This document shows positions 1,866 to 31,147 of a stretch of 64,000 nt of DNA, piece by piece. Positions within the stretch are counted from its first letter, which is position 1. Each line of letters begins with the position of its first letter. This DNA is from a virus. The position numbers were made by a program, and so were the translations under genes. The DNA lies in IMG/VR virus record IMGVR_UViG_3300050821_008688, positions 1 through 64,000 of that record. One strand, 5' to 3'. The notes below the pieces were generated by a model, which made no database searches, was not told the DNA's origin, and saw only the letters and a list, made by a program, of their open reading frames with translations.

Positions 1866-1882
1866 AGACTTTTTGTTCTATA
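1866..1882 (+). promoter_or_regulatory. putative late promoter motif, copy 1
   Basis: AGACT-TTTTG-TTCTATA; one of 11 copies with identical spacing. Confidence 0.7.
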
Positions 1883-1986
1883 AGTGTGGGAAACAATTTG
1901 ACCGAGGGACGGCGGGACAAGGCTTTCAAATAGTAGAGCCTATAAAACCAAAGAAATTCCGTCCAACATTTTCGAGGAGAAATAAA

Positions 1987-2148
1987 ATGATTATAGGAAT
2001 TCTTGTTGGAGTTGTAATTGCAGCGGTCGGGTACGCGATTTACAAGCATGTCGGGCTCGCCACGATTGAAGCGGACGTGAAGGCGGCTGTTTCTAATCCA
2101 ACGGCTACGCTCGCGACAATCAAAGCGGAACTTGCAAAATATCTGTAA
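1987..2148 (+). CDS. small single-TM membrane protein (possible lysis accessory)
   Basis: N-terminal hydrophobic helix, SD GAGGAG, directly after the endolysin. Confidence 0.6.
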   Translation: MIIGILVGVVIAAVGYAIYKHVGLATIEADVKAAVSNPTATLATIKAELAKYL

Positions 2149-2162
2149 AAGGGGAGGGGTCC

Positions 2163-11760: not shown

Positions 11761-14700
11761 ATGGCACGAAAAGTAGGTCCAGCGAGCGACCCTGCTCTTG
11801 CTATAGAATTTTTTCTGAGTGGGTTCTATACCTATCGCTCACAGTTATTTGCCCCGTTCAAGGGTATTGGTGTCAACGTTGTTAGCTTCCATGACCCCGT
11901 GATAGACGGGGCCAATATGGAAGACATTGATTTGTTTGAGTGGCAGCGTCGTCCCGGTTATTCTATTTATTGTTCGCAGCCGCTCGCCAGCAACGAAGTC
12001 GTTAACGAATTTTACAGCATGCGGAATCTGAATGGTCAGGTCATTTCTTTTTTTGATTCTACTACGCGGCTTGCAACTTTTACGCCTACCACAATCACCT
12101 CGGTGATTCCCAAGACTGGAAGTAACGAAGGATTTATCACCAGCGTTGAAAACATGGTGTATTTTTCAGACGGCGTTTCGGTGGATACGCAGAAGTGGGA
12201 TTCTGCACTTCCGTTCTCCTCAATTAATCCATCAACTTGGGGTCTTACTGCACCAACCCTGACTCCCACAATTTTTAGTCAAGGATGCTGGTTGCCGTTT
12301 GTTGGGAAGAATTTGAATAATGCAATTCTTGACCCGAATGGAAACGTAGAGGTCGTCACAAAAGTTTACGGAGCGTCTGGAGTCACAGGAGCAAACCAAC
12401 CGCTATGGCCTACGACCGTATCGTCCACCATTAATGATGGGTCAGTTCAGTGGACGAATATGGGACCGTTGGAAACTTGGCTTCCCGCTACGTTTTTCCC
12501 CGTCCCTGTGGTTGTGTTGGACACGAATGGAAATTTGCAATTGGCGCAAGCGACATCACCAGCGGTTTTGGCATGGAGTGCGGCTACACCATATACGGTA
12601 GGTATTACCGTTTCATTTGCAGGCGAGTATTGGACTTCTTTAGCGGCGAATACGGGCGTCGCGCCATCTGCAAACTATACCGTTACCGCAGGGGGCGTCA
12701 CTCAACCCTACTGGGTTCAGGCTCAAAATCCAAGTCAAACCGGCATATATCCAACAACCCCGTACGTTCCCGCGTGGAATCAGACAGTCGGCGGAACCAC
12801 CACGGATGGAAACTATACGTGGATAAATCTTGGACCGGGAAATCTTGTTGAGTCTTTTGGTACATCGTACGTTTATTGTTTCCGTACCATCTATGGGCAT
12901 TTGACGACCGCATCTCCAGTGAGCCTTAACACGGGAAGTATTTTTGGTCCGGTTGTTGCGACGATTACAGGATTCTCCATTGCTGGGAATACTGTTACAT
13001 TTTTGGGAGTGAACAACTTTATTCCCGGAAATGTCTTCAGTGTTCAGGGGCTAACCACGGGTGTGTATCTTAACAATCAGCCGTTTACTGTGCTAGCTGC
13101 GGGTTTGAGTCCAACTCAGTTCTCCGCCGTGTTTGATTTCCCTAACGTGGGGGCAACAATTGACTCGGGGTCCACGGAAAATTTGATTGCGGCGATTACG
13201 GGAGTCGGAACCACGTCTCCGCTGTGCAATGCTGTTGTAGCTATCAGCGCGACTTCAGTTCTGGATGGGGTGGTAACTGTTTTTTCGGTGAACAACTTCG
13301 TTCCCGGACTTCAAGTAACTTTCGCGGGACTGACTGTTGCAACATTTTTGAATGGACTTCAGTTTGAAATTATTAACGTTGACCCTCTTGGGCAATGGTT
13401 TCAAGTTTTTTTCACAAACGCACTCGGAGTGGTTCCACCCAATCAAAGTCAAACTACTGACACCGGTACCGCGACATTTAACGCTATTGAAATCTACAGA
13501 ACAAGCGATGGCGGCGGCATATATCTTTTCACGGGTGCGGTTACGAATCCTACGGGGTCAACTACTATTCCGTTTGACTCGGGAATCTCCACAGCAGGCG
13601 TCGGAACAGACAACGGTATTCCCGGTACGTTCGTGTGGGTTAATCCGAACAACGTTACGAGCGCGACTTTGTATGCCACAGTGACTGTACCTACTCCGGT
13701 CGGCAGCGGTAGCGGGCGGTTTAGCGCGGTTCAGACGTGTCAAAATATTTCTTCAGGTTTTACTGCTCCGTCGGTGTCTGCGACTTTTCCTGCGAACGTG
13801 ACGGCAGGAAACTCTCTTCTCGTTCATGTGGTGACGTACGACTTGACGAGTTGGACTATCGGCGACAATCAAGGAAACGTCTACGTTCAAATTGCGCAGC
13901 AGGTGGCTCCTAACGACCACGGTGTTGTAACGGATACAGTTTACAAGGTTGCTAATCCAGCGGCAGGGCCGACAACAGTGAAGTTGACCCCAGTATTTAC
14001 GAGCGATAATAACGACTTTTTTGGTTTTCAGGCTGTGGAGTGCAGCGGGCTTAACGGTACGGTAGAAGCACCTGCATCCGTTTTTCAAGCGTCGGGCACA
14101 ACACTCAACTCCGGGACAATTACAACGTCGGCTACAGCTACGGTGGTTTTTAGTTTTATTTGGAGCGACTTGTCAACTAATTCGGGTAACGTAGCTACGC
14201 AGCCTGCGGCATATTTATCTGCGGGAAATCAGACGGTATTTGATGCGGCGGATGGTAACACGTTCCAGCAGATGGCGGTTGCGTATCAGGTTCAGTCGGC
14301 TACTGGAACTTTTTCACCGATATGGGCTACACCTGCGAACAGTAAAGGTATCGGGATTACGATTGCTCTGGACCTATCTTTGTTTGCGCCGTCTGACGGT
14401 TTGAATGCGGAGCAGTTTAATTTTTCTGTTCCTCCGGCGATTGCTGTTGCGGGGATTACGATTGAGTTTGACTCGTTCTTTACTGGTACTCCGGGATTCG
14501 GAATTTTGGATGTCCAGTTGCTCAATGCAGGCAACCCCGTAGGCACTGTTATGCAGGTTGCTCTGACGAATGCAGTTCAAACATACACGTTGGGAGGCCC
14601 GACCAATTTGTGGGGCACGACGTGGACTCCCACTAATTTTAATTCTTCCGCGTGGGGTGTGCAGTTTACCGCGACGCAACTGACGGGCGGAACAAACGCC

Positions 14701-17133
14701 ACGTTTAGTGTGCGCAACGTTCGCGCACGCCTCGTGGGTGGAACGAGTACGACAGGTTGGGTCTTTAATGACTTTACGACGGACGCGAATTTGGATATTT
14801 TGCAGATTGCGCCGCAGAATCATTTGAATGACCCGCCTCCGGGCGCACCGGGGTCATCGGTCAATCAAGTTGTTGGCACACTGACTGCATACTGGCAGGG
14901 TCGTATCTGGATGTGTGTTGGAAACTTCGTTTATTTTGACGCGGGTCCAGACTGCGTAAACGGAGTGCCTGAAGAATCGTGGCCTCCTGCAAATCGGTTC
15001 CAGTTTGTAGGTCCGACGCTTGGTCTTGAACCGACAGCAGATGGTGTTGGATTGCTTGTCTATTTGGCCGACCGCGTGAACGCGATTCTAGGTGGTCCTG
15101 AAACGATTAGTTTCTATGCTACGGACGCGCTTAATAACTTTGGAATCTCAAATCCGAATGCGATTTTCAAAGACGGTTCAACCATCGGACAATTCACAAC
15201 TCAGAAACAATACTTTGAGCTAATTGAGAGTCAGAAAATACAGGTAGGCGAGCACATCGCCGATTATCTGACGGCCAATTTTAGCCCGCTTACCACGTTT
15301 GCGACTATGCATCGCAACGGGCTCGATGTCGGAGTATTTCTCAGCAACGGAGTAGACCGAATTGTGCGCTACGGAAGTAATATCAGCGCGTGGAGTGTTC
15401 CGGCGTTCCCGATTGGCGGCGCTGGCGCGCTGCGGTCCATTGAAACAGCCGTGGGCACGTACAGTCTGATGTTGGGCTCGCCCACTGGCGGTGCTACGGT
15501 GTCTACTTCGCTTACGAACCCGAGCGTAGGCGCGAGTGTTGGAACAGGCGTCGCGTGGCTGACTCCGGGTAATATTACGGCAGGAAATCCTACGAGTTAT
15601 GCGACGGTGACGTTAAGTTCAGCGTCGGTAGTGCCGAGCGAGAACAATGCGACGAACGGATTTACACCGACTGGGGCTACGGCGGTCACAACAATAACTC
15701 CGGTGGTAACACCGATTAATGTGGGCGATACCGCGTTCATGATGTTCTATGTGCAGAACGAGGCGGGTAACTCAGACCAAACCATCATTTCTGGCATCAC
15801 AGATAATTTGGGAAATAACTGGCAGCTTCTTTTTCCTACGCAGAACCCGAGTGCGCATTTGTTTTTTCAGGTATTCTATGCGCGAATGGGAACCGCAGTT
15901 CCTTTGTTGTCAACGCTGACTATCACGGCTGCGGTGGCATTTCATACAGAAGCGGTGGTCAATTATGCGTCTTTTGCGAATTTTACAAATCTTGGCGCGT
16001 TGAATTCTACGCAACAGCGAATCTCAGTGGCATCGACGGACCCGGTGAGTGGTCCTGCAATAACGATTACGCAACAGGAATTTCTGATGTCTTTTGTATT
16101 TGTTTATGAAGGCAACATTCCGTTGACGGGACCAACCGGGTGGACACAGGACAATACTAATTTTGGGCATCCAAATACATCCGTGGTTTCAGATTCAGCC
16201 GCATGGATATTAGAGCCTGCGGGAACATATGCAGACCAGTGGACTAGTGGTGGTAGCGCCGATGCGTGGGGTGCGAATCTTGCGGCATTTATAGTACCGG
16301 CCACTGTGCCTTCTGTTTCGCAAAGTTTGCAAGGTAGCCAGTATCCGCTGAATATTCCTCCTGACGCTATTGTGCAGGGTGTTGAAGTGTCTATCACGGG
16401 AAAAACCACAAACACAGGTATTACTATGAGCGTGACTCCGGCGAATGCGGCGGTTGGCGCAGAGGCGGATGCGTTCAGTTTGACGGCTTCAAATACGACT
16501 CAAGTTTTTGGTGGACCGCTAGACCTGTGGGGTATGTCTGCATGGTTGAATCCCTCCGCGCTTAATGCCGGAACATTTGGTTTTAATGTAGTGGCGTCTG
16601 CTGTTGGAATTTCGGGAACAGTGTCTATTTCAGAAGTTCAAGTCGCGGTTTTTTATACGACACCCGGAAGCTATCTGCGATACCGTGATACTACTACATG
16701 GGCGGATAATGGCCTGACGGGACAGAACAATGGAACTTCGTATTCTGAGTGCTACATCACAGTCGGAAGTATCACACTGTCTCAACCCGGCGCGCCGATG
16801 TTTCCATTGCAGCATGTGGTTGGATATTTTGACGCGGTTGGAACGCTCCACAACGGCGGTTCATCGTGGCCGGATATTTGGATTCTGCCAAATGAAGTTA
16901 GTGACACGAAGGGTATCGGATTTGTGTTTCTGCCGGAAACTCTTCAGGAGCCTCCGGTCGGACAAAATAAGCCGTCAACTTCGCTGTTGGCTTTGCGGTG
17001 GCCGGTGAATATGATGAACAGTGATTTGGCATCACAGTACGTGCATCATCTGCAAGTGAAGATTTCGTTTGACCCGGAGAACGCGCCGAATACTATCAAG
17101 GCGATATCGTTCAAAGAAAACCAGAGCGATTAA
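11761..17133 (+). CDS. large tail hub/nozzle protein (P22 gp10 / tubular-B-like) with inserted carbohydrate-binding-like modules
   Basis: 1790 aa; N-terminal RRPG motif, propeller-like segments (YWQGRIW), a CBM5/12-like motif and internal duplications; precedes the GNAT and ejection genes. Confidence 0.7.
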   Translation: MARKVGPASDPALAIEFFLSGFYTYRSQLFAPFKGIGVNVVSFHDPVIDGANMEDIDLFEWQRRPGYSIYCSQPLASNEVVNEFYSMRNLNGQVISFFDSTTRLATFTPTTITSVIPKTGSNEGFITSVENMVYFSDGVSVDTQKWDSALPFSSINPSTWGLTAPTLTPTIFSQGCWLPFVGKNLNNAILDPNGNVEVVTKVYGASGVTGANQPLWPTTVSSTINDGSVQWTNMGPLETWLPATFFPVPVVVLDTNGNLQLAQATSPAVLAWSAATPYTVGITVSFAGEYWTSLAANTGVAPSANYTVTAGGVTQPYWVQAQNPSQTGIYPTTPYVPAWNQTVGGTTTDGNYTWINLGPGNLVESFGTSYVYCFRTIYGHLTTASPVSLNTGSIFGPVVATITGFSIAGNTVTFLGVNNFIPGNVFSVQGLTTGVYLNNQPFTVLAAGLSPTQFSAVFDFPNVGATIDSGSTENLIAAITGVGTTSPLCNAVVAISATSVLDGVVTVFSVNNFVPGLQVTFAGLTVATFLNGLQFEIINVDPLGQWFQVFFTNALGVVPPNQSQTTDTGTATFNAIEIYRTSDGGGIYLFTGAVTNPTGSTTIPFDSGISTAGVGTDNGIPGTFVWVNPNNVTSATLYATVTVPTPVGSGSGRFSAVQTCQNISSGFTAPSVSATFPANVTAGNSLLVHVVTYDLTSWTIGDNQGNVYVQIAQQVAPNDHGVVTDTVYKVANPAAGPTTVKLTPVFTSDNNDFFGFQAVECSGLNGTVEAPASVFQASGTTLNSGTITTSATATVVFSFIWSDLSTNSGNVATQPAAYLSAGNQTVFDAADGNTFQQMAVAYQVQSATGTFSPIWATPANSKGIGITIALDLSLFAPSDGLNAEQFNFSVPPAIAVAGITIEFDSFFTGTPGFGILDVQLLNAGNPVGTVMQVALTNAVQTYTLGGPTNLWGTTWTPTNFNSSAWGVQFTATQLTGGTNATFSVRNVRARLVGGTSTTGWVFNDFTTDANLDILQIAPQNHLNDPPPGAPGSSVNQVVGTLTAYWQGRIWMCVGNFVYFDAGPDCVNGVPEESWPPANRFQFVGPTLGLEPTADGVGLLVYLADRVNAILGGPETISFYATDALNNFGISNPNAIFKDGSTIGQFTTQKQYFELIESQKIQVGEHIADYLTANFSPLTTFATMHRNGLDVGVFLSNGVDRIVRYGSNISAWSVPAFPIGGAGALRSIETAVGTYSLMLGSPTGGATVSTSLTNPSVGASVGTGVAWLTPGNITAGNPTSYATVTLSSASVVPSENNATNGFTPTGATAVTTITPVVTPINVGDTAFMMFYVQNEAGNSDQTIISGITDNLGNNWQLLFPTQNPSAHLFFQVFYARMGTAVPLLSTLTITAAVAFHTEAVVNYASFANFTNLGALNSTQQRISVASTDPVSGPAITITQQEFLMSFVFVYEGNIPLTGPTGWTQDNTNFGHPNTSVVSDSAAWILEPAGTYADQWTSGGSADAWGANLAAFIVPATVPSVSQSLQGSQYPLNIPPDAIVQGVEVSITGKTTNTGITMSVTPANAAVGAEADAFSLTASNTTQVFGGPLDLWGMSAWLNPSALNAGTFGFNVVASAVGISGTVSISEVQVAVFYTTPGSYLRYRDTTTWADNGLTGQNNGTSYSECYITVGSITLSQPGAPMFPLQHVVGYFDAVGTLHNGGSSWPDIWILPNEVSDTKGIGFVFLPETLQEPPVGQNKPSTSLLALRWPVNMMNSDLASQYVHHLQVKISFDPENAPNTIKAISFKENQSD

Positions 17134-24466: not shown

Positions 24467-25519
24467 CTAGAAGTTGTCCCTTAAGTACTGGTTCAATTTA
24501 TCTAGCCTGTAGGTAGTATCTCGCAACTGCACGTTTAATGCAAGCGAATCCGCATTGAGTTGGTTGCGGAAGATGAGGGCCAGAGATGTGTCGGACCCAG
24601 AGATAGCCGTGGAGGTATCTGCGATTTTTTGGCGCTCAACTTTTAATCGGCGTAGTTCCTCGGACTGGACAGCGACTAGGTCGCTCACGATTTTGTGATA
24701 GACCTGAATGCTCTGCATTACGTCGCCGACCTGTGCTTGTTTCCAGTCGCCGTACGCTTCTTCAGATTTGTTGTAGTGTTGTGATGCCGTGTGGCTCCCG
24801 AGATTATACGTGACGGTGAAGCCCGCGTATGGGCTCCCAGTTGGCACTGCGAACGGCAGCAGCGGTTTCTCTACGCCAGCGGTTACTTGGAAATCCCAGT
24901 TGTTCAGCTTCAAAAGTTTATCTTGAGCCTTCTGGGTTTCAACGTTCGTCGCAAATTCTGCATCGGCCAGTTCGGTTAGAGACTCAGTAGAGAGTGGAGG
25001 CACGAAAATATTCGCAAGTGCCACTCGGGTGGTTTGACGTTCTGTTTCTAGCGCGAGTTTTTGTTTGCTGAGTAAATAGATGGACTGTTTTGGAATATTG
25101 TGAGCCTCCAAAATTTTTGTGTTTGCGGCGATTAACGTGTCATTCTCCGCAATCGCCGCGTTGATTAGGGTCAATTTATATCGTAATGCGTCTAATTCCA
25201 GAGCCTGCATATCAAATGTGATACGTTCTTGGACGGTGATGGAGTCTTTGTAGAGTTGGCACTGCTTTTTGCCAATGGCGATAGTCAGACTGCCTTCGCG
25301 GATGTGATTGACAGAGTCAGTGAGCCCCAAAAATAGTTGCGGCGGCGTGCCTTGGGCTGGCGTGACTCCCGCCGTGGCGACTGGCGCGCGAAGCGTAGCG
25401 CCTTGGGCTTGGGACGACTCTTCAATATAACGGCAGTACGCCGTGGTGTCTTGCGCGGATTGGCCCCAGATAGCCATTGACCACATAAGCCATGTAAAAA
25501 GAATCGCTAGGTATTTCAT
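24467..25519 (-). CDS. outer-membrane-factor (TolC-like) protein
   Basis: Signal peptide; two amphipathic beta-hairpins (VATAGVTP..LFLGLT; WDFQVTAGVE..YAGFTVTYNL), each followed by long helices, matching the TolC two-fold repeat. Confidence 0.55.
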   Translation of the reverse strand: MKYLAILFTWLMWSMAIWGQSAQDTTAYCRYIEESSQAQGATLRAPVATAGVTPAQGTPPQLFLGLTDSVNHIREGSLTIAIGKKQCQLYKDSITVQERITFDMQALELDALRYKLTLINAAIAENDTLIAANTKILEAHNIPKQSIYLLSKQKLALETERQTTRVALANIFVPPLSTESLTELADAEFATNVETQKAQDKLLKLNNWDFQVTAGVEKPLLPFAVPTGSPYAGFTVTYNLGSHTASQHYNKSEEAYGDWKQAQVGDVMQSIQVYHKIVSDLVAVQSEELRRLKVERQKIADTSTAISGSDTSLALIFRNQLNADSLALNVQLRDTTYRLDKLNQYLRDNF

Positions 25520-26238
25520 GATTTCTCCTGTTGGTCATCAACGTTGAGAATGAAATCTGCGACACGGCCATGCAGAAGTTTGGCGTTCGGTATTACGCAA
25601 TGCCCGCCAATCTTGCCGGGGAAATGTTCAAGGACCGGGCGAGCTACTGAAGACATGCCGAGTGCGGCATATCCGTCATTGTATGTGTAGTTTGATAGTT
25701 TGTAAACTACATCGAAATCCAGACCGTTTTCTTCGCAGTATCTGTGGACTTCTTTTTCAAATGCGATGCACATACCGTAGTATGTAGTGCTCCACAGTTT
25801 CAAGGCTTCGGTCGTGCTAGCCTTGGGAGTAGCGAATGTTTTGATGCCGATTGACAGAAAAATCTCAGCGGCTTCTTTGGCACGCGGGCCACCAAAAAAT
25901 TTTACGAACGTCGTTATACCCTTTGCGAGATTTGGGTGAACGCCGCGAATTGGAGAGTGAACTACGCGATTTGAAGCGATACGGCAGCATGTTCCCATTG
26001 GAACTGTTGAGTGAACGATGACCAGTCCCTCGTCAGTCAAATAATGCAGTAAATATGCCCGCACGTTTTCAATGAAATGTTCGGAGTATGGAATACAGAT
26101 GTGGATAACATCTGCTCTGATGTCTGTGGAACTGTCCATATCAATGCCAACTACTTTGAGGCCACGGTCTCGAAGAACGGAATAAACTGCGCTGCCCACT
26201 TGTCCGTTGCAACCAACGACTAGATGCTGTTGTAACAT
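25516..26238 (-). CDS. UDP-glucose/GDP-mannose dehydrogenase family protein (short form)
   Basis: Rossmann VVGCNGQVG, HSTVPMGT, EALKL and catalytic GGHCV; SD GGAGG. Confidence 0.88.
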   Translation of the reverse strand: MLQQHLVVGCNGQVGSAVYSVLRDRGLKVVGIDMDSSTDIRADVIHICIPYSEHFIENVRAYLLHYLTDEGLVIVHSTVPMGTCCRIASNRVVHSPIRGVHPNLAKGITTFVKFFGGPRAKEAAEIFLSIGIKTFATPKASTTEALKLWSTTYYGMCIAFEKEVHRYCEENGLDFDVVYKLSNYTYNDGYAALGMSSVARPVLEHFPGKIGGHCVIPNAKLLHGRVADFILNVDDQQEKS

Positions 26239-26251
26239 TTGAATCCTCCCT

Positions 26252-27277
26252 TTAGAATATCCACAACGGTCGTCCGAAAAATAAGACTTTGGCTTTGCCA
26301 TCTTCTGGATTGTAGAGCGAAATTTCTGCGAGTGTGCCGCGAACGTCATCTTTGAACAGCGGATTCGCTCCGTGAACCTCGGCGGGAAACAAACGAACGA
26401 TGCGGCCCGCTTTGGAGCAAGCTACTATTCCAATCTTGCAGGAGTACAACGGAGCGTTCGGTTGCACGGCGGTGCCGTATGGCACAAACAGAAAAGTTTT
26501 GGATGGCCCAGACAATACGGCATAGACGGGACTGTCCTGTGCTGTCTGAAGGGCGTTGTCTAGGGCGCGAATTTGGTCGGTCTCGGCTTTGAGTGTCGCA
26601 GAACTGGCGCAAATTGTAATGTTGAGTTGAGAGATTTCGTCCAGTAATTCGGCGCGTTTGGTCAAAGTTTCCAGCATTTTTGTATTCGTCGGGTTGTGTT
26701 CCACAATTTGGTCGCGCAATAAAATCTCAGTGATGCGGTTGTCAGTGAATCCGTTTCTGGCTTGAGTCAGTGCCAGCTTCGCAGTTTCCGCGTCGCTCTT
26801 AGTCATTAGTCCCGTGGTCATGTCTGTATCAATTTCGCTGCGCAATGCTGCAACACTTGAGTCATCCGTGGTGTCTATATCGGATTGTTTCTGTTGGTCA
26901 AGAGAGGCAAGCGCGCGACCGCTCTCTTTAATGGCTTGGTCTTCGCGTGCGATAGCCGGGTCAGTTTTGTCGGCGACGGTTTGAAGTGCTAGTCGGTGAA
27001 TTTTCATCTCAAGAATCAGGTTGGTGAGACGTGCGGTATCAATAGCGAGAGCGTCCCGCTGTGCGTTGGAAGTCAGTACTTTGCCCAGCATGTCGAGGCT
27101 GGCCGCGTCTGAGGCTGAGAGCGTGACTGGCGCGCCCCAAGAGGATGCGGTGAGATAGTAAATGATGACTGCGCCATACGAGACCATGCCTCCAAGAATG
27201 CCATAAAGAATTGAGAGGCCAACTAAGCGGTAGAGTGTTAGAACCAAACTTGTCGCGCTTAATCTAAACTGAATCAT
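26252..27277 (-). CDS. membrane-fusion / periplasmic adaptor-like protein
   Basis: One N-terminal TM, a long coiled-coil hairpin and a C-terminal beta domain. Confidence 0.55.
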   Translation of the reverse strand: MIQFRLSATSLVLTLYRLVGLSILYGILGGMVSYGAVIIYYLTASSWGAPVTLSASDAASLDMLGKVLTSNAQRDALAIDTARLTNLILEMKIHRLALQTVADKTDPAIAREDQAIKESGRALASLDQQKQSDIDTTDDSSVAALRSEIDTDMTTGLMTKSDAETAKLALTQARNGFTDNRITEILLRDQIVEHNPTNTKMLETLTKRAELLDEISQLNITICASSATLKAETDQIRALDNALQTAQDSPVYAVLSGPSKTFLFVPYGTAVQPNAPLYSCKIGIVACSKAGRIVRLFPAEVHGANPLFKDDVRGTLAEISLYNPEDGKAKVLFFGRPLWIF

Positions 27278-28484
27278 TTGATTTCCTCACTTTCGGTTTT
27301 AGAGTTCTGTTGCCCCAGTCGCCGGAGTCTAAAGTGAAAATAGCCAAAGGCGCGAGCAACAGCGAATTAACAATCCACCATGTAGAATATACCAGCAACT
27401 TCAGCGGATGTCTAACAGATTGTGACGGGGTGAACTTTCGCACCAAGCAAAATACTAGAAATCCGTATCCGAAGAAAATGAGCGCGCGGTTCGGGTCTAG
27501 CCACGCGCCGGGATATCCTGCAAACAGAAGCGCGATTTGCAGAATTGAAATGAATAGCACCAGCGGCGTTAGGATGTAGACATACAGCGATTTCACGCCC
27601 AGTTTGTGAATGTGCGTGTGGACGTGGCGAACTGAAAAGAAAAAATCCCGAATTGTGGTACGTCTCCAGCGTAGTTGTTGTCCCCAATATTTTGTGAAAG
27701 TGTTTGGGACGGCGGTATAGCAAACGGCTTTCTCGTCCATGTAGGTACCCCAGCCATTCAGAAGCAGGCAGTGTGTGATGAATCGGTCTTCGCCGTCTTT
27801 GACTTGAACGCCGAACCAATTTCGGCTTTCTAGTTCTGGCCGTAGTTGTTCAAAGGCTTCGCGTCGTAGAGCGAAAGCGTAGCCGCCGATTACGCCGACC
27901 ATTCGCATCGCATTCTCAGGTTGCTTGTAGAGTTGGAACCCGAGAAAATAAATGAAGACTTGAAACGCGGTCAGCGCGTTGTCATTTGGATTGCGAACAA
28001 TCGCGGGCGCACCGACACCACCCAAACGTTTGTCTCCCAGACACGCCATTAATTCACGAATGCACGTTGGTCCCAGTGTCGTGTCGGAGTCTACAATCAT
28101 GACTATTTCGGAATCCGAGTGCGCCAGCGCGTTCAGAATGGTTTGGGTTTTACCAAGGTTTGGATTGTTGTAGAAGGCGCGCACATTTGGAAAATCTACA
28201 GCGGCTTTTGCTAGCCACTCCGCTGTGTCGTCTCCGCTGCAATCGTCGGTCACAATCATATCAATCTTGCCGGGATAATCACTGTGGGAAATACTCTCCA
28301 CTGTAGAATAGACTGCGCGGCCTTCGTTGAAAGCAGGCAACAGAATGGAGAGGGAGGGAGTATAGGAATAATCCTTGATGACTCCAACGTTCGGATGGGA
28401 AATACGCATAATCGCGCCGACCAAGTAGCGAGCGATTCCTACAATTAGCGCGATGATGGTCATCATCACCAAAAAAATCGGCAT
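27264..28484 (-). CDS. processive GT2 polysaccharide synthase (NodC / hyaluronan / chitin synthase-like)
   Basis: PAFNE, DD, GK, DSDT, GEDR, QQLRW and C-terminal WGNR; N- and C-terminal TM helices. Confidence 0.92.
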   Translation of the reverse strand: MPIFLVMMTIIALIVGIARYLVGAIMRISHPNVGVIKDYSYTPSLSILLPAFNEGRAVYSTVESISHSDYPGKIDMIVTDDCSGDDTAEWLAKAAVDFPNVRAFYNNPNLGKTQTILNALAHSDSEIVMIVDSDTTLGPTCIRELMACLGDKRLGGVGAPAIVRNPNDNALTAFQVFIYFLGFQLYKQPENAMRMVGVIGGYAFALRREAFEQLRPELESRNWFGVQVKDGEDRFITHCLLLNGWGTYMDEKAVCYTAVPNTFTKYWGQQLRWRRTTIRDFFFSVRHVHTHIHKLGVKSLYVYILTPLVLFISILQIALLFAGYPGAWLDPNRALIFFGYGFLVFCLVRKFTPSQSVRHPLKLLVYSTWWIVNSLLLAPLAIFTLDSGDWGNRTLKPKVRKSNDSV

Positions 28485-28766: not shown

Positions 28767-28783
28767 AGACTTTTTGTCCTATT
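28767..28783 (+). promoter_or_regulatory. putative late promoter motif, copy 7
   Basis: AGACT-TTTTG-TCCTATT. Confidence 0.65.
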
Positions 28784-28801: not shown

Positions 28802-29077
28802 GTGGAAGAACGCCGCCAGCACGACCGTTCGGAAGAGATTTTGCAGGCTATTCGTGATACACGTAAAGATGTTAACGACCATCGTCAAGAGGCGACTCTG
28901 GCTATTGGTAATTTGCGTACAGAAGTTGCTACGTTTAGAAGCAATATTGAAGTCCGAGTGAAAGCGACGGAAGACTATCAAAAAACGGATGAAAAATGGG
29001 CGCGTATCCATCACCTGTTACTTCCGCTTTACGCGATTGGACACGGTATCGCGGCTCACTTTGGCATTAGGATTTAA
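28802..29077 (+). CDS. coiled-coil + C-terminal TM protein (XhlA/holin-like)
   Basis: ERR start, coiled coil, hydrophobic C-terminus; late motif upstream. Confidence 0.55.
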   Translation: MEERRQHDRSEEILQAIRDTRKDVNDHRQEATLAIGNLRTEVATFRSNIEVRVKATEDYQKTDEKWARIHHLLLPLYAIGHGIAAHFGIRI

Positions 29078-30359
29078 TTCCATAGAACGTTCGTGCGTAT
29101 AGTGGGGCTTTGGGTATCACTCGTACCGCAGTTGGGTCAGCCGTTACTGAGAACTTCCGCCCGCTTGGAAATTTCACTTCTACTATCACATTTGGATTTC
29201 CTGTCTTCATCACAGTGCCGCAGTATTTCGCCGCCTCGCCTGTTAAAATTTCCACGAAATCGCCAATCCGAACGCGCGCCGTTTTCTGCGCGGAGACAGA
29301 AGCCATCATTTTTAGTACATCTGCGTGTGGGACCGTTACCGCACTGACAAACTCCCCGGCGTCGTTGTAGGTTGCGGCCATCTCTGTGATGCCGCGTATG
29401 TGAGTCAGAGAGTTTAGTGCTGTCGGATTTATGCTGCGCGCTAGGATGTATCCGAATTCAAGTTCACCATTGGCGTCTGTCGGTGCGAAAATTTGCGCAG
29501 CGGTTTTGCTGAACATTTTTTGCCCGTAGCGTTGAAGCGTTGGCAGGATTGTGTTGATACGATGCTCGCTGCTAGTCTCAAACATATTCCACGAAGTATT
29601 GCGGAGCGCCGAGGTATCGCCGAACGAAAGCAGCGGCAGTTTATCAGACGGTGGTGCTTTGAAACGGCGAAGATGAACCCGCTGTAGTCGTGCTCGGCAA
29701 CTGCTACTGAGACCGCTGCGAGTCAGTGAGGCTTGGTGAGTCAGGCTGCGAAGATAGCAGCCGACCGCTAGAGCGCGAATGTCTTTTGATGCGAGCAGCT
29801 TTTTAATAGCGGGGCGGAATATTTTGCGAATCGCGGAGCGCGGAGCCTTCACAGTGTCTGCAACAAAAGCGTAACTCTGTTTCTGCGCGTACAAGAGAAT
29901 CAGGTCCGTCAAGCTGCCGTATTGCGTGTACTCTAAATTTGCCAGATACAAAATAGGACGTAGAATGCTGGCGTCTGGGTTTGTGCCGAGAACGATAAGC
30001 GCGCCGATTGCTTGCTCAATGAGGCGCAACTGTTGCCATACCCGCGTCTGAATCTCTCCGTGGGTTCTGGCAATAAAACTTTGGGATTTGCCCAGAAGGT
30101 AGTACGACAAAAACATTTCTTGCCACTCAACGCGGAGTTTTGCGAGGAGGGGGAAAAGTTTTTCGGGGTATTCTTGAGCGAACGCTCGGAAGTCAATCAG
30201 GCTGGTATTTTCGGGAATGGTTTCTGTAGAAATTAGCTCACCGTGTTTGTCTTTGCGATTGAACGCGGCTTCACTCGCTGCGTCTTCAATGCCCTCCCAG
30301 TAGGCCGGGTTGTTGTGTGGCGTATATGGTTCTAAATTGGTAGAATTATCAAAGGGCAT
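29067..30359 (-). CDS. transcription regulator: sigma70 region-4-like HTH(s) fused to NusG NGN-KOW
   Basis: LRVEWQEMFLSYYLLGKSQSFIARTHG (r4-like HTH); second HTH SYAFVADTV; FGYILAR..HIRGITE (NGN); RIGDFVEILTGEAAKYCGTV (KOW). Confidence 0.7.
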   Translation of the reverse strand: MPFDNSTNLEPYTPHNNPAYWEGIEDAASEAAFNRKDKHGELISTETIPENTSLIDFRAFAQEYPEKLFPLLAKLRVEWQEMFLSYYLLGKSQSFIARTHGEIQTRVWQQLRLIEQAIGALIVLGTNPDASILRPILYLANLEYTQYGSLTDLILLYAQKQSYAFVADTVKAPRSAIRKIFRPAIKKLLASKDIRALAVGCYLRSLTHQASLTRSGLSSSCRARLQRVHLRRFKAPPSDKLPLLSFGDTSALRNTSWNMFETSSEHRINTILPTLQRYGQKMFSKTAAQIFAPTDANGELEFGYILARSINPTALNSLTHIRGITEMAATYNDAGEFVSAVTVPHADVLKMMASVSAQKTARVRIGDFVEILTGEAAKYCGTVMKTGNPNVIVEVKFPSGRKFSVTADPTAVRVIPKAPLYARTFYGIKS

Positions 30360-30365
30360 ACCTGC

Positions 30366-30394
30366 ATAGTACTTTGGTACCAGCGGGATGTCAA
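30366..30394 (-). promoter_or_regulatory. leaderless sigma70 promoter overlapped by a GTAC-N4-GTAC box
   Basis: TTGACA-17-TACTAT-6-ATG; box at 30368-30381 covers the spacer and -10. Confidence 0.75.
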
Positions 30395-31133: not shown

Positions 31134-31147
31134 AGTACCGAAGTACC
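31134..31147. promoter_or_regulatory. GTAC-N4-GTAC box abutting -35
   Basis: AGTACCGAAGTACC; leftward promoter TTGACC-17-CACACT. Confidence 0.75.

Follow-up and report, generated by a model that had tools for sequence, protein, structure and literature searches.

Which DNA signals might be read, and which polymerase steered, by a single phage protein that joins helix-turn-helix (HTH) domains resembling sigma region 4 to a module of the NusG family? The question is raised by a gene on the minus strand (29067-30359) of a 64,000-nucleotide stretch of viral DNA, positions 1 to 64,000 of IMG/VR record IMGVR_UViG_3300050821_008688, which we refer to as the window. An earlier note, made from the sequence alone, had proposed that the gene product combines an acidic N-terminus, a region 4-like HTH, a second HTH-like segment and, finally, NGN and KOW domains. 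The open reading frame (ORF) is real: it was called and translated as a protein of 430 amino acids (aa) with its stop codon at 29067-29069, and every peptide segment quoted by the note is found in it. Modelling and fold comparison show a four-domain chain, predicted to consist of a sigma-4-like HTH domain, a second, basic HTH-like domain, an NGN domain and a KOW domain, together with an acidic tail. We lean towards reading this protein as a DNA-targeted NusG paralogue that is made early, joins host RNA polymerase at phage signals and remains bound to it. Its parts are placed as follows.

30204-30359, minus strand: acidic, disordered N-terminal tail (residues 1-52), with predicted local distance difference test (pLDDT) values below 50, a net charge of -7 and 10 D/E against 3 K/R
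29979-30203, minus strand: sigma region 4-like domain with helices of 4.1 and 4.2 (residues 53-127), recognition helix GEIQTRVWQQLRLIEQ
29676-29978, minus strand: second helical, HTH-like domain, strongly basic (residues 128-228), candidate recognition helix RSAIRKIFRPAIKKL
29604-29675, minus strand: structured linker with two short strands (residues 229-252), the junction that divides the split forms
29289-29603, minus strand: NGN domain (residues 253-357), from structure superposition
29112-29288, minus strand: KOW beta-barrel (residues 358-416), a five-strand barrel in the model
29070-29111, minus strand: C-terminal tail (residues 417-430) with an invariant R423-x-F425-(W/Y)-G427

The acidic N-terminus is thus as the earlier note described it. 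An AlphaFold2 model built on a 42-sequence alignment reached a mean pLDDT of 84, and the N-terminal half (N-half) folded on its own reached 91. Within this half, residues 62-127 superpose on sigma region 4, with a Z-score (Z) of 10.2 to SigD4 (3vep_D; root-mean-square deviation (rmsd) 1.6 A over 63 residues) and an rmsd of 1.1 A over 57 residues to SigF (8jzt_A). Sigma-4 domains account for 20 of the 21 top fold matches, LuxR/NarL-type HTHs ranking below at Z 6-7.8; the four-helix region 4.1/4.2 fold is matched at rmsd 1.1-1.9 A, and the family profile aligns in register with region 4 of SigF at E 0.07. The claimed region 4-like HTH therefore stands, with the fold found in region 4 of sigma-70 family members such as the extracytoplasmic function (ECF) sigmas, SigF and sigma-28. 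The second HTH-like segment fared less evenly: it is helical and modelled with confidence (fragment residues 11-150, or protein residues ~63-202, have pLDDT 94-98), and residues 128-228 carry a sigma-4.2-like helix-turn-helix sequence and a net charge of +11, but their fold matches are weak (Z ~5.3-5.7; ChrA and CcmR, for example, at Z ~5.3). A second HTH is plausible here from the model.

The C-terminal half, on which the earlier note had staked its proposal, matched NusG, RfaH and Spt5 in the fold search. Residues 253-357 superpose on the NGN domain of Escherichia coli NusG (6vz7_AB; Z 8.6, rmsd 2.6 A over 96 residues), on Spt5 (3lpe_A; Z 8.2) and on RfaH (8pen_P; Z 7.9), and Foldseek returned full-length chains of all three proteins with a probability of 1.00 and E-values from 2e-5 to ~5e-4. 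The KOW barrel (residues ~357-416) gave profile matches to the KOW domains of NusG, Spt5 and L24/L26, and, independently of this evidence, the ESM Atlas places residues 234-430 beside NusG, RfaH, Spt5 and viral KOW clusters. Pfam and PHROGs gave no significant match for the 430-aa protein itself, and Pfam NusG (PF02357) did not match it even at E up to 10. As the Pfam gathering score is not reached, we argue for membership of the NusG/Spt5 family from the fold together with the colinear remote alignment.

Conservation within the protein peaks in the two HTH domains, with mean top-residue frequencies of 0.76 for the sigma-4-like domain, the best conserved of all, and 0.71 for the second; their putative recognition helices are nearly invariant across the clade. 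Two short motifs lie outside the folded domains and are candidate docking motifs. An invariant S44-x-E46-T (residues 44-46 at window positions 30222-30230) sits in the disordered acidic tail, and its S44 and E46 vary neither among the fused proteins nor among the stand-alone N-halves described below. The R-x-F-(W/Y)-G motif (residues 423-427 at 29079-29093) follows the KOW domain, and stand-alone NGN-KOW proteins have RVFYY in its place.

The gene has at least 130 full-length homologues, 46-60% identical, on metagenome contigs of up to ~107 kb. It is kept in all four complete related genomes at 52-56% identity and is a core gene of a clade of ~97-kb phages. An exhaustive profile search of 1.84 billion representatives yielded 337 relatives, in which the two halves also occur apart. 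Class a comprises stand-alone proteins of ~250 aa that match the N-half only; class b proteins start with the NGN-KOW half and end in variable tails. The division falls at the linker, where class a ends at profile position ~220 and class b begins at ~238.

Among class a proteins, 14 of 40 match Sigma70_r4_2 (best 1.5e-7) and 8 of 40 match Sigma70_r4, while 14 of 40 match the C-terminal half of PF06530 (best 2.4e-6), the model of the Q21 antiterminator family (PMC9388147); one relative reaches 26.9 bits against the PF06530 cut-off of 26, over positions 59-106 of 118. The 430-aa protein scores 13.6 bits against the same model, over positions 62-110 only, and the Q21 chain 6jnx_P superposes on its N-half at Z 6.2 and rmsd 3.1 A over 75 residues, well under the sigma-4 matches. 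Covering ~50 of the 118 positions and overlapping the Sigma70_r4 matches, the Q21 similarity may reflect a shared HTH type only. Class b members match KOW models and two match Pfam NusG (best E 1.7e-4), in one case from profile position 2 to 93 of 93; for P0153 the score is 17.3 bits, under the NusG cut-off of 22.2. The class b profile also aligns with the linker plus KOW of Aquifex NusG at E 6e-5 and is colinear with a Terriglobia NusG. The C-terminal extensions of the class b proteins P0170 and P0214 showed no similarity to the N-half family, and the reverse-order HTH in P0170 is of a generic kind.

In two contig lineages (G007/G008 and G009) the separate genes share a tight operon, class a lying 1.3-1.8 kb upstream of class b on the same strand, in the order in which the domains stand in the fusion. 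Both halves are also encoded, 32 kb apart, by the cultured jumbo phage Tunturi_5 of Tunturiibacter: gp25, the NGN-KOW half, is annotated as a transcription antiterminator, and gp346 (PP885688.1 301753-302487; L013:3254-3988) is an N-half homologue matching the family profile at E 3.5e-29. The latter carries an exonuclease annotation that, judged by this similarity, is probably wrong, and because of that label the pairing of gp25 with gp346 has gone unrecognised. Taken together, fusion, operon linkage and co-occurrence argue that both modules work as one unit. Neither module was found in Tunturi_3, the nearest isolate by terminase, and no prophage copies were found in the 185,579 species genomes searched. 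The earlier note had called the fusion unusual, and this is borne out: no solved or BFVD structure shares the whole sigma-4/HTH/NGN/KOW architecture, and a literature search found no paper on a sigma-4-NusG fusion or on the paired modules.

The window belongs to the complete genome (99,668 bp, with direct terminal repeats) of a soil phage. Its products include a terminase, an SU10-type portal, a major head protein, a tail fibre, endonuclease VII, a transglycosylase and GroEL, as well as RecA, ERF, UvrD, a primase-helicase, a DNA polymerase and an integrase-family protein. The sole relative of the terminase among 50,697 phage records is that of Tunturiibacter phage Tunturi_3 (24% identity), and the phage RecA (genome 79420-80436; L002:17420-18436) is 73-78% identical to RecA of Terriglobia/Acidobacteriota genomes. 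From these two similarities, the host is most likely an acidobacterium, probably of the Terriglobia. The RecA itself resembles a fairly recent capture from the host lineage and is usable as a host marker.

A six-frame search of the complete genome found no Sigma70_r2 at E up to 1 and no PF00940 or PF00623 (single-subunit and multisubunit RNA polymerase), the PF00940 search being a weak test in that its control matched nowhere; the DxDGD motif was likewise absent from the complete genome. Pfam and PHROGs scans of ~100 ORFs found no sigma factor, RNA polymerase or other transcription factor besides one Srd match, in which a small ORF (of 59 in alignment A4) matches PHROG 1400, the Srd anti-sigma factor, at E 3e-10. 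Sigma70_r2 was not found in the 430-aa protein by Pfam and its model holds no sigma-2-like fold. With no sigma region 2 in protein or genome, the 430-aa protein is not a sigma factor.

The gene has a promoter of its own, which marks it as early:

30366-30394, minus strand: sigma-70-type promoter TTGACA-17-TACTAT, with the ATG 6 nucleotides (nt) past the -10

From this spacing, its message is leaderless or nearly so. Early promoters with the ATG 6-9 nt after the -10 were seen here (window 30359-30371) and at L004:4433, L005:5100 and L006:5576, and by its sequences the clade seems to use leaderless early messages, its late genes carrying Shine-Dalgarno-like sequences. The same promoter architecture heads the operon of the gene in the relatives G002 and G003; directly upstream of the homologues, no strong sigma-70 promoters were found. 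Across the genome, the early block holds more sigma-70-like promoters than expected (20 against 10.8, standard deviation 2.6), and the late regions show no such excess. Such late regions beside such an early block, in a complete genome with no detected sigma region 2 or phage RNA polymerase, point to the need for a factor that steers the host polymerase.

Two conserved DNA signals could direct such a factor. The late element has the consensus w-w-t-A-AGACT-T-t-t-N2-t-w-C-(C/T)-ATA-R-R-T-G, or AGACT-N7-C-N-ATA in its short form, and has 8 matches in the window, all on the plus strand, against 0.05 expected. Five genomes hold 33 sites. Every one of them falls on the coding strand of late genes, usually 12-30 nt ahead of a start codon, and a Shine-Dalgarno-like stretch begins ~4 nt past the motif. 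Its position is conserved, a copy preceding the gene for a 1790-aa protein in all five genomes, and it persists in degenerate form across the clade; the late motif that the earlier note had named is therefore real and strand-specific. The second signal, GTAC-N4-GTAC, occurs in 14, 7, 10, 8 and 8 copies in the five genomes against ~1.5 expected, a 5- to 9-fold enrichment, and its geometry is fixed as GTAC-N4-GTAC-NN-TTGNNN-N17-TAnnAT, typically exactly 2 bp upstream of the -35. The candidate target sites in the window are listed below.

62855-62871, plus strand: late-motif copy AGACT-N7-C-N-AT-W upstream of the portal gene
1866, 5613, 7371, 11716, 17632, 28767, 49591, 54354 and 58470: starts of the other nine late-motif copies (ten in total)
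31135-31146, no strand assigned: GTAC-N4-GTAC 2 bp upstream of a sigma-70 -35 hexamer
23153, 32631, 33059, 37082, 37876, 39081, 45133 and 45447: starts of other GTAC-N4-GTAC copies
30369-30380, no strand assigned: GTAC-N4-GTAC within the spacer and -10 of the gene's own promoter, a repressing position

Among the products of the core genome, only the 430-aa protein has recognisable HTH domains, and its gene is one of just two core ORFs in the early block. On these grounds the protein is a strong, non-exclusive candidate reader of one or both signals. The high conservation of its HTH domains parallels the clade-wide conservation of both motifs. Many GTAC-N4-GTAC promoters (window 23153-45458 and genomes G001-G004) have a third GTAC ~13 nt farther from the -35, as in ...GTACGAAAGTACtgatttttggctaGTACtagg, which suggests, as sequence goes, a three-site operator. 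At 1866 the late motif is followed by ~280 nt without an ORF (window 1866-2160), and the first 30 nt of this stretch (agtg..aaacaatttg.gc.ag.gac) resemble those in two related phages (G001:40839; G004:32803); the region may be a conserved non-coding RNA or a leader.

How, then, might the 430-aa protein work? In the reading that we favour, it would be made early from its sigma-70-type promoter and would act on the multisubunit RNA polymerase of the host, probably a member of the Terriglobia. We infer that it binds both RNA polymerase and DNA. As in NusG, RfaH and Spt5, the NGN domain would dock on the beta-prime clamp helices of the elongating polymerase and suppress pausing and termination, with the KOW domain engaging a partner such as ribosomal protein S10 or shielding the RNA from Rho. 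Judging from its anatomy, the tandem HTH would supply the sequence-specific recruitment that NGN alone performs in RfaH and UpxY, binding the DNA duplex of phage signals, either at the transcription bubble or immediately upstream of it. Loaded at defined sites, like a lambdoid Q protein, the factor would then ride the polymerase through the long phage operons. The signal might well be the late AGACT-N7-C-N-ATA, the HTH sitting on the AGACT duplex and the NGN on non-template C-N-ATA; GTAC-N4-GTAC beside the -35 hexamers is a somewhat less probable choice, and what likelihood is left belongs to neither motif or to both. UpxY, a NusG paralogue that recognises upstream duplex together with non-template DNA, sets a precedent for such bipartite reading (PMC11685472), and Q proteins do so for promoter-proximal loading (PMC9388147).

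Several points weigh against this proposal. The protein falls below all Pfam thresholds and its NGN domain is just 9-16% identical to solved NusG proteins, so that retention of the clamp-helix pocket is an assumption. The sigma-4 fold may serve protein contacts, with the beta flap, rather than DNA. Small unannotated core proteins could be the true readers of either motif. Tunturi_5, a carrier of the split modules, shows no enrichment of either motif, although at 25-30% identity this is uninformative. Finally, intrinsic terminators were not enriched in any region, and with no excess of them in late regions, classical antitermination may not be what the phage needs.

Could the protein instead act from a promoter-bound position? 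A regulator of the GTAC-N4-GTAC class, its HTH on the palindrome, would activate early or middle promoters and repress its own; its NGN-KOW half would either contact the polymerase or be handed over when the promoter is cleared. We regard this as possible though unlikely. The enrichment and fixed geometry of the palindrome in all five genomes speak for it, as does the fact that, of the copies in the window, only the one in the promoter of the 430-aa gene is placed for repression. In G002 and G003 the promoter that heads the gene's transcription unit likewise holds the palindrome inside spacer and -10, but a small ORF that intervenes there has no counterpart in the window and could itself be the autoregulator; directly upstream of the homologues no operator over a promoter was found, these two operon heads being the only instances. 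The operon head of G001 has the activator geometry, moreover, and three other relatives show no palindrome near the gene. GTAC being self-complementary, two different HTH domains could in principle read its two copies, yet domains that differ from each other would hardly be expected to share one four-base target, and a palindrome more usually means a dimer when NusG-family factors act as monomers. The lack of palindrome enrichment in Tunturi_5 counts here as well. More improbable is that the NGN domain replaces sigma region 2 on the clamp helices and reads non-template C-N-ATA while the HTH reads AGACT upstream, so that the host core enzyme would start at the late motif without sigma and keep the same factor as a processivity subunit. 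This would suit a genome without detectable sigma region 2 or phage polymerase, in which a bipartite, strand-specific and positionally conserved late motif is the only conserved signal of the late regions. ECF sigma region 4 domains are the best structural matches, and AGACTT resembles the GGAACTT-type -35 of ECF sigmas. Reading of non-template DNA has precedent in the NGN domains of RfaH and UpxY (PMC11685472). The gap of 7 bp between the half-sites is, however, far below any sigma geometry, and a Shine-Dalgarno-like stretch ~4 nt past the motif fits read-through or a start at the motif's end rather than -10 to +1 spacing. A small gp55-like sigma could, besides, have escaped detection, and we know of no NGN domain that nucleates promoter melting.

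Two further explanations remain. As a takeover competitor, the protein would occupy the clamp helices, and perhaps the flap, and displace host NusG or sigma without sequence-specific loading. Early expression from a strong sigma-70 promoter is consistent with this, as is the overlap of the NGN site with that of sigma region 2, and through its sigma-4 fold the protein could contact the flap tip in the manner of sigma. The earlier note had placed sigma and NGN on overlapping clamp-helix sites, which holds for sigma region 2 but not for region 4, which binds the beta flap tip and the -35 element (PMC9388147). We nevertheless find displacement quite improbable: near-invariant recognition helices and a second domain with a net charge of +11 point to nucleic-acid binding, and the operon-linked split forms and the similarity to the Q21 model suggest a loaded factor, not a blocker. 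Least probable of all, and in our view barely credible, is a cis regulator in the style of UpxY or RfaH that serves the downstream glycosyltransferase and polysaccharide genes (24467-28484), the alternative service that the earlier note had offered. The gene does stand first in a minus-strand run with a GT2 glycosyltransferase and a UDP-glucose-dehydrogenase-like gene, and UpxY is encoded first in capsule operons (PMC11685472). But none of these neighbours is kept beside the gene in seven related phage loci, where only the gene itself is conserved (52-56% identity); in several relatives it is the last in its operon, in several the next gene is convergent, and the glycosyltransferase block has a separate sigma-70-type promoter ahead of it at 28756-28727.

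Compared with known systems, the DNA-targeted paralogue that we favour combines familiar parts in a different way. Like RfaH, UpxY, LoaP, TaA and the plasmid-borne ActX/PrfaH, it has an NGN followed by a KOW, and like the genes of these specialised paralogues its gene lies on horizontally moving or accessory DNA. RfaH- and UpxY-type paralogues are recruited at specific sites and then ride with polymerase, as would be expected of the 430-aa protein, and the signal read by UpxY has several parts, made up of upstream duplex and non-template DNA, and in some cases lies beside a start codon (PMC11685472, PMC7819879). The specialised paralogues lack an N-terminal DNA-binding module, recognition being by the NGN itself or, for LoaP, through RNA, whereas ~230 residues of tandem sigma-4-like HTH and acidic tail precede the NGN here. 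Its KOW is predicted as a beta-barrel only, the model giving no sign of RfaH-type fold switching. Lambdoid Q proteins, especially Q21, are likewise phage factors that bind promoter-proximal DNA by an HTH, load onto polymerase and travel with it; they form a nozzle on the RNA exit channel (PMC9388147) and, unlike the 430-aa protein, have no NGN or KOW. From sigma factors the protein differs in lacking regions 2 and 3, which were found in neither protein nor genome, and in carrying the region 4-like domain apparently in tandem duplicate, tied to an elongation-factor module. Phage use of the flap site is exemplified by T4 gp33, a co-activator that occupies it as region 4 does. BFVD models named NusG or RfaH, 173-241 aa long and from uncultured Caudovirales, resemble the C-terminal half (E 3e-6 to 1e-4); these phage proteins stand alone, without the HTH half, and the literature search found no study of them.

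Around the gene, a 91-aa ORF on the plus strand (28802-29077) converges on it, the two sharing 11 nt at the 3' end of the gene; a homologue of the ORF is present in L010, and the late-motif variant AGACTTTTTGTCCTATT precedes the ORF at 28767. Late transcription from 28767 would run antisense through the 430-aa gene and could shut it off late. The late motif ends in a T7/SP6-like CTATA-G, which had prompted the idea of a hidden phage RNA polymerase; this candidate was rejected, as the six-frame search, with its weak PF00940 test, showed no RNA polymerase domain, no DxDGD motif was seen, and a 751-aa protein of the genome is a DNA polymerase, not an RNA polymerase. The 1790-aa protein of the structural block (11761-17133, plus strand) belongs to no Pfam or PHROG family and has no polymerase metal-binding motif; its tblastn matches to relatives span ~250-290 aa and, where mapped, begin at its N-terminus.

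No transcription factor family other than NusG/Spt5 is, to our knowledge, conserved across all domains of life, and the specialised paralogues of NusG serve as models of the change from a general elongation factor to an operon-specific one. Every characterised NusG paralogue that we know of finds its targets by the NGN itself or through RNA. This phage lineage appears to have given target-finding to a DNA-reading module of the sigma type, which is either fused covalently or supplied by a partner gene of the same operon. If so, the DNA-directed promoter loading of lambdoid Q would be merged with the clamp-bound riding of RfaH; were the protein instead to stand in for sigma, one protein would span initiation and elongation. 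The setting is the phages of Acidobacteriota, and Tunturi_5 with its host, Tunturiibacter psychrotolerans, offers a cultured system with the split version, in which the proposal is directly testable. Two widespread, unannotated phage protein families gain names, the ~250-aa sigma-4/Q-like proteins and the NGN-KOW proteins with variable tails. Fused or split, the two halves appear to form a hitherto undescribed device with which phages steer the RNA polymerase of the host.

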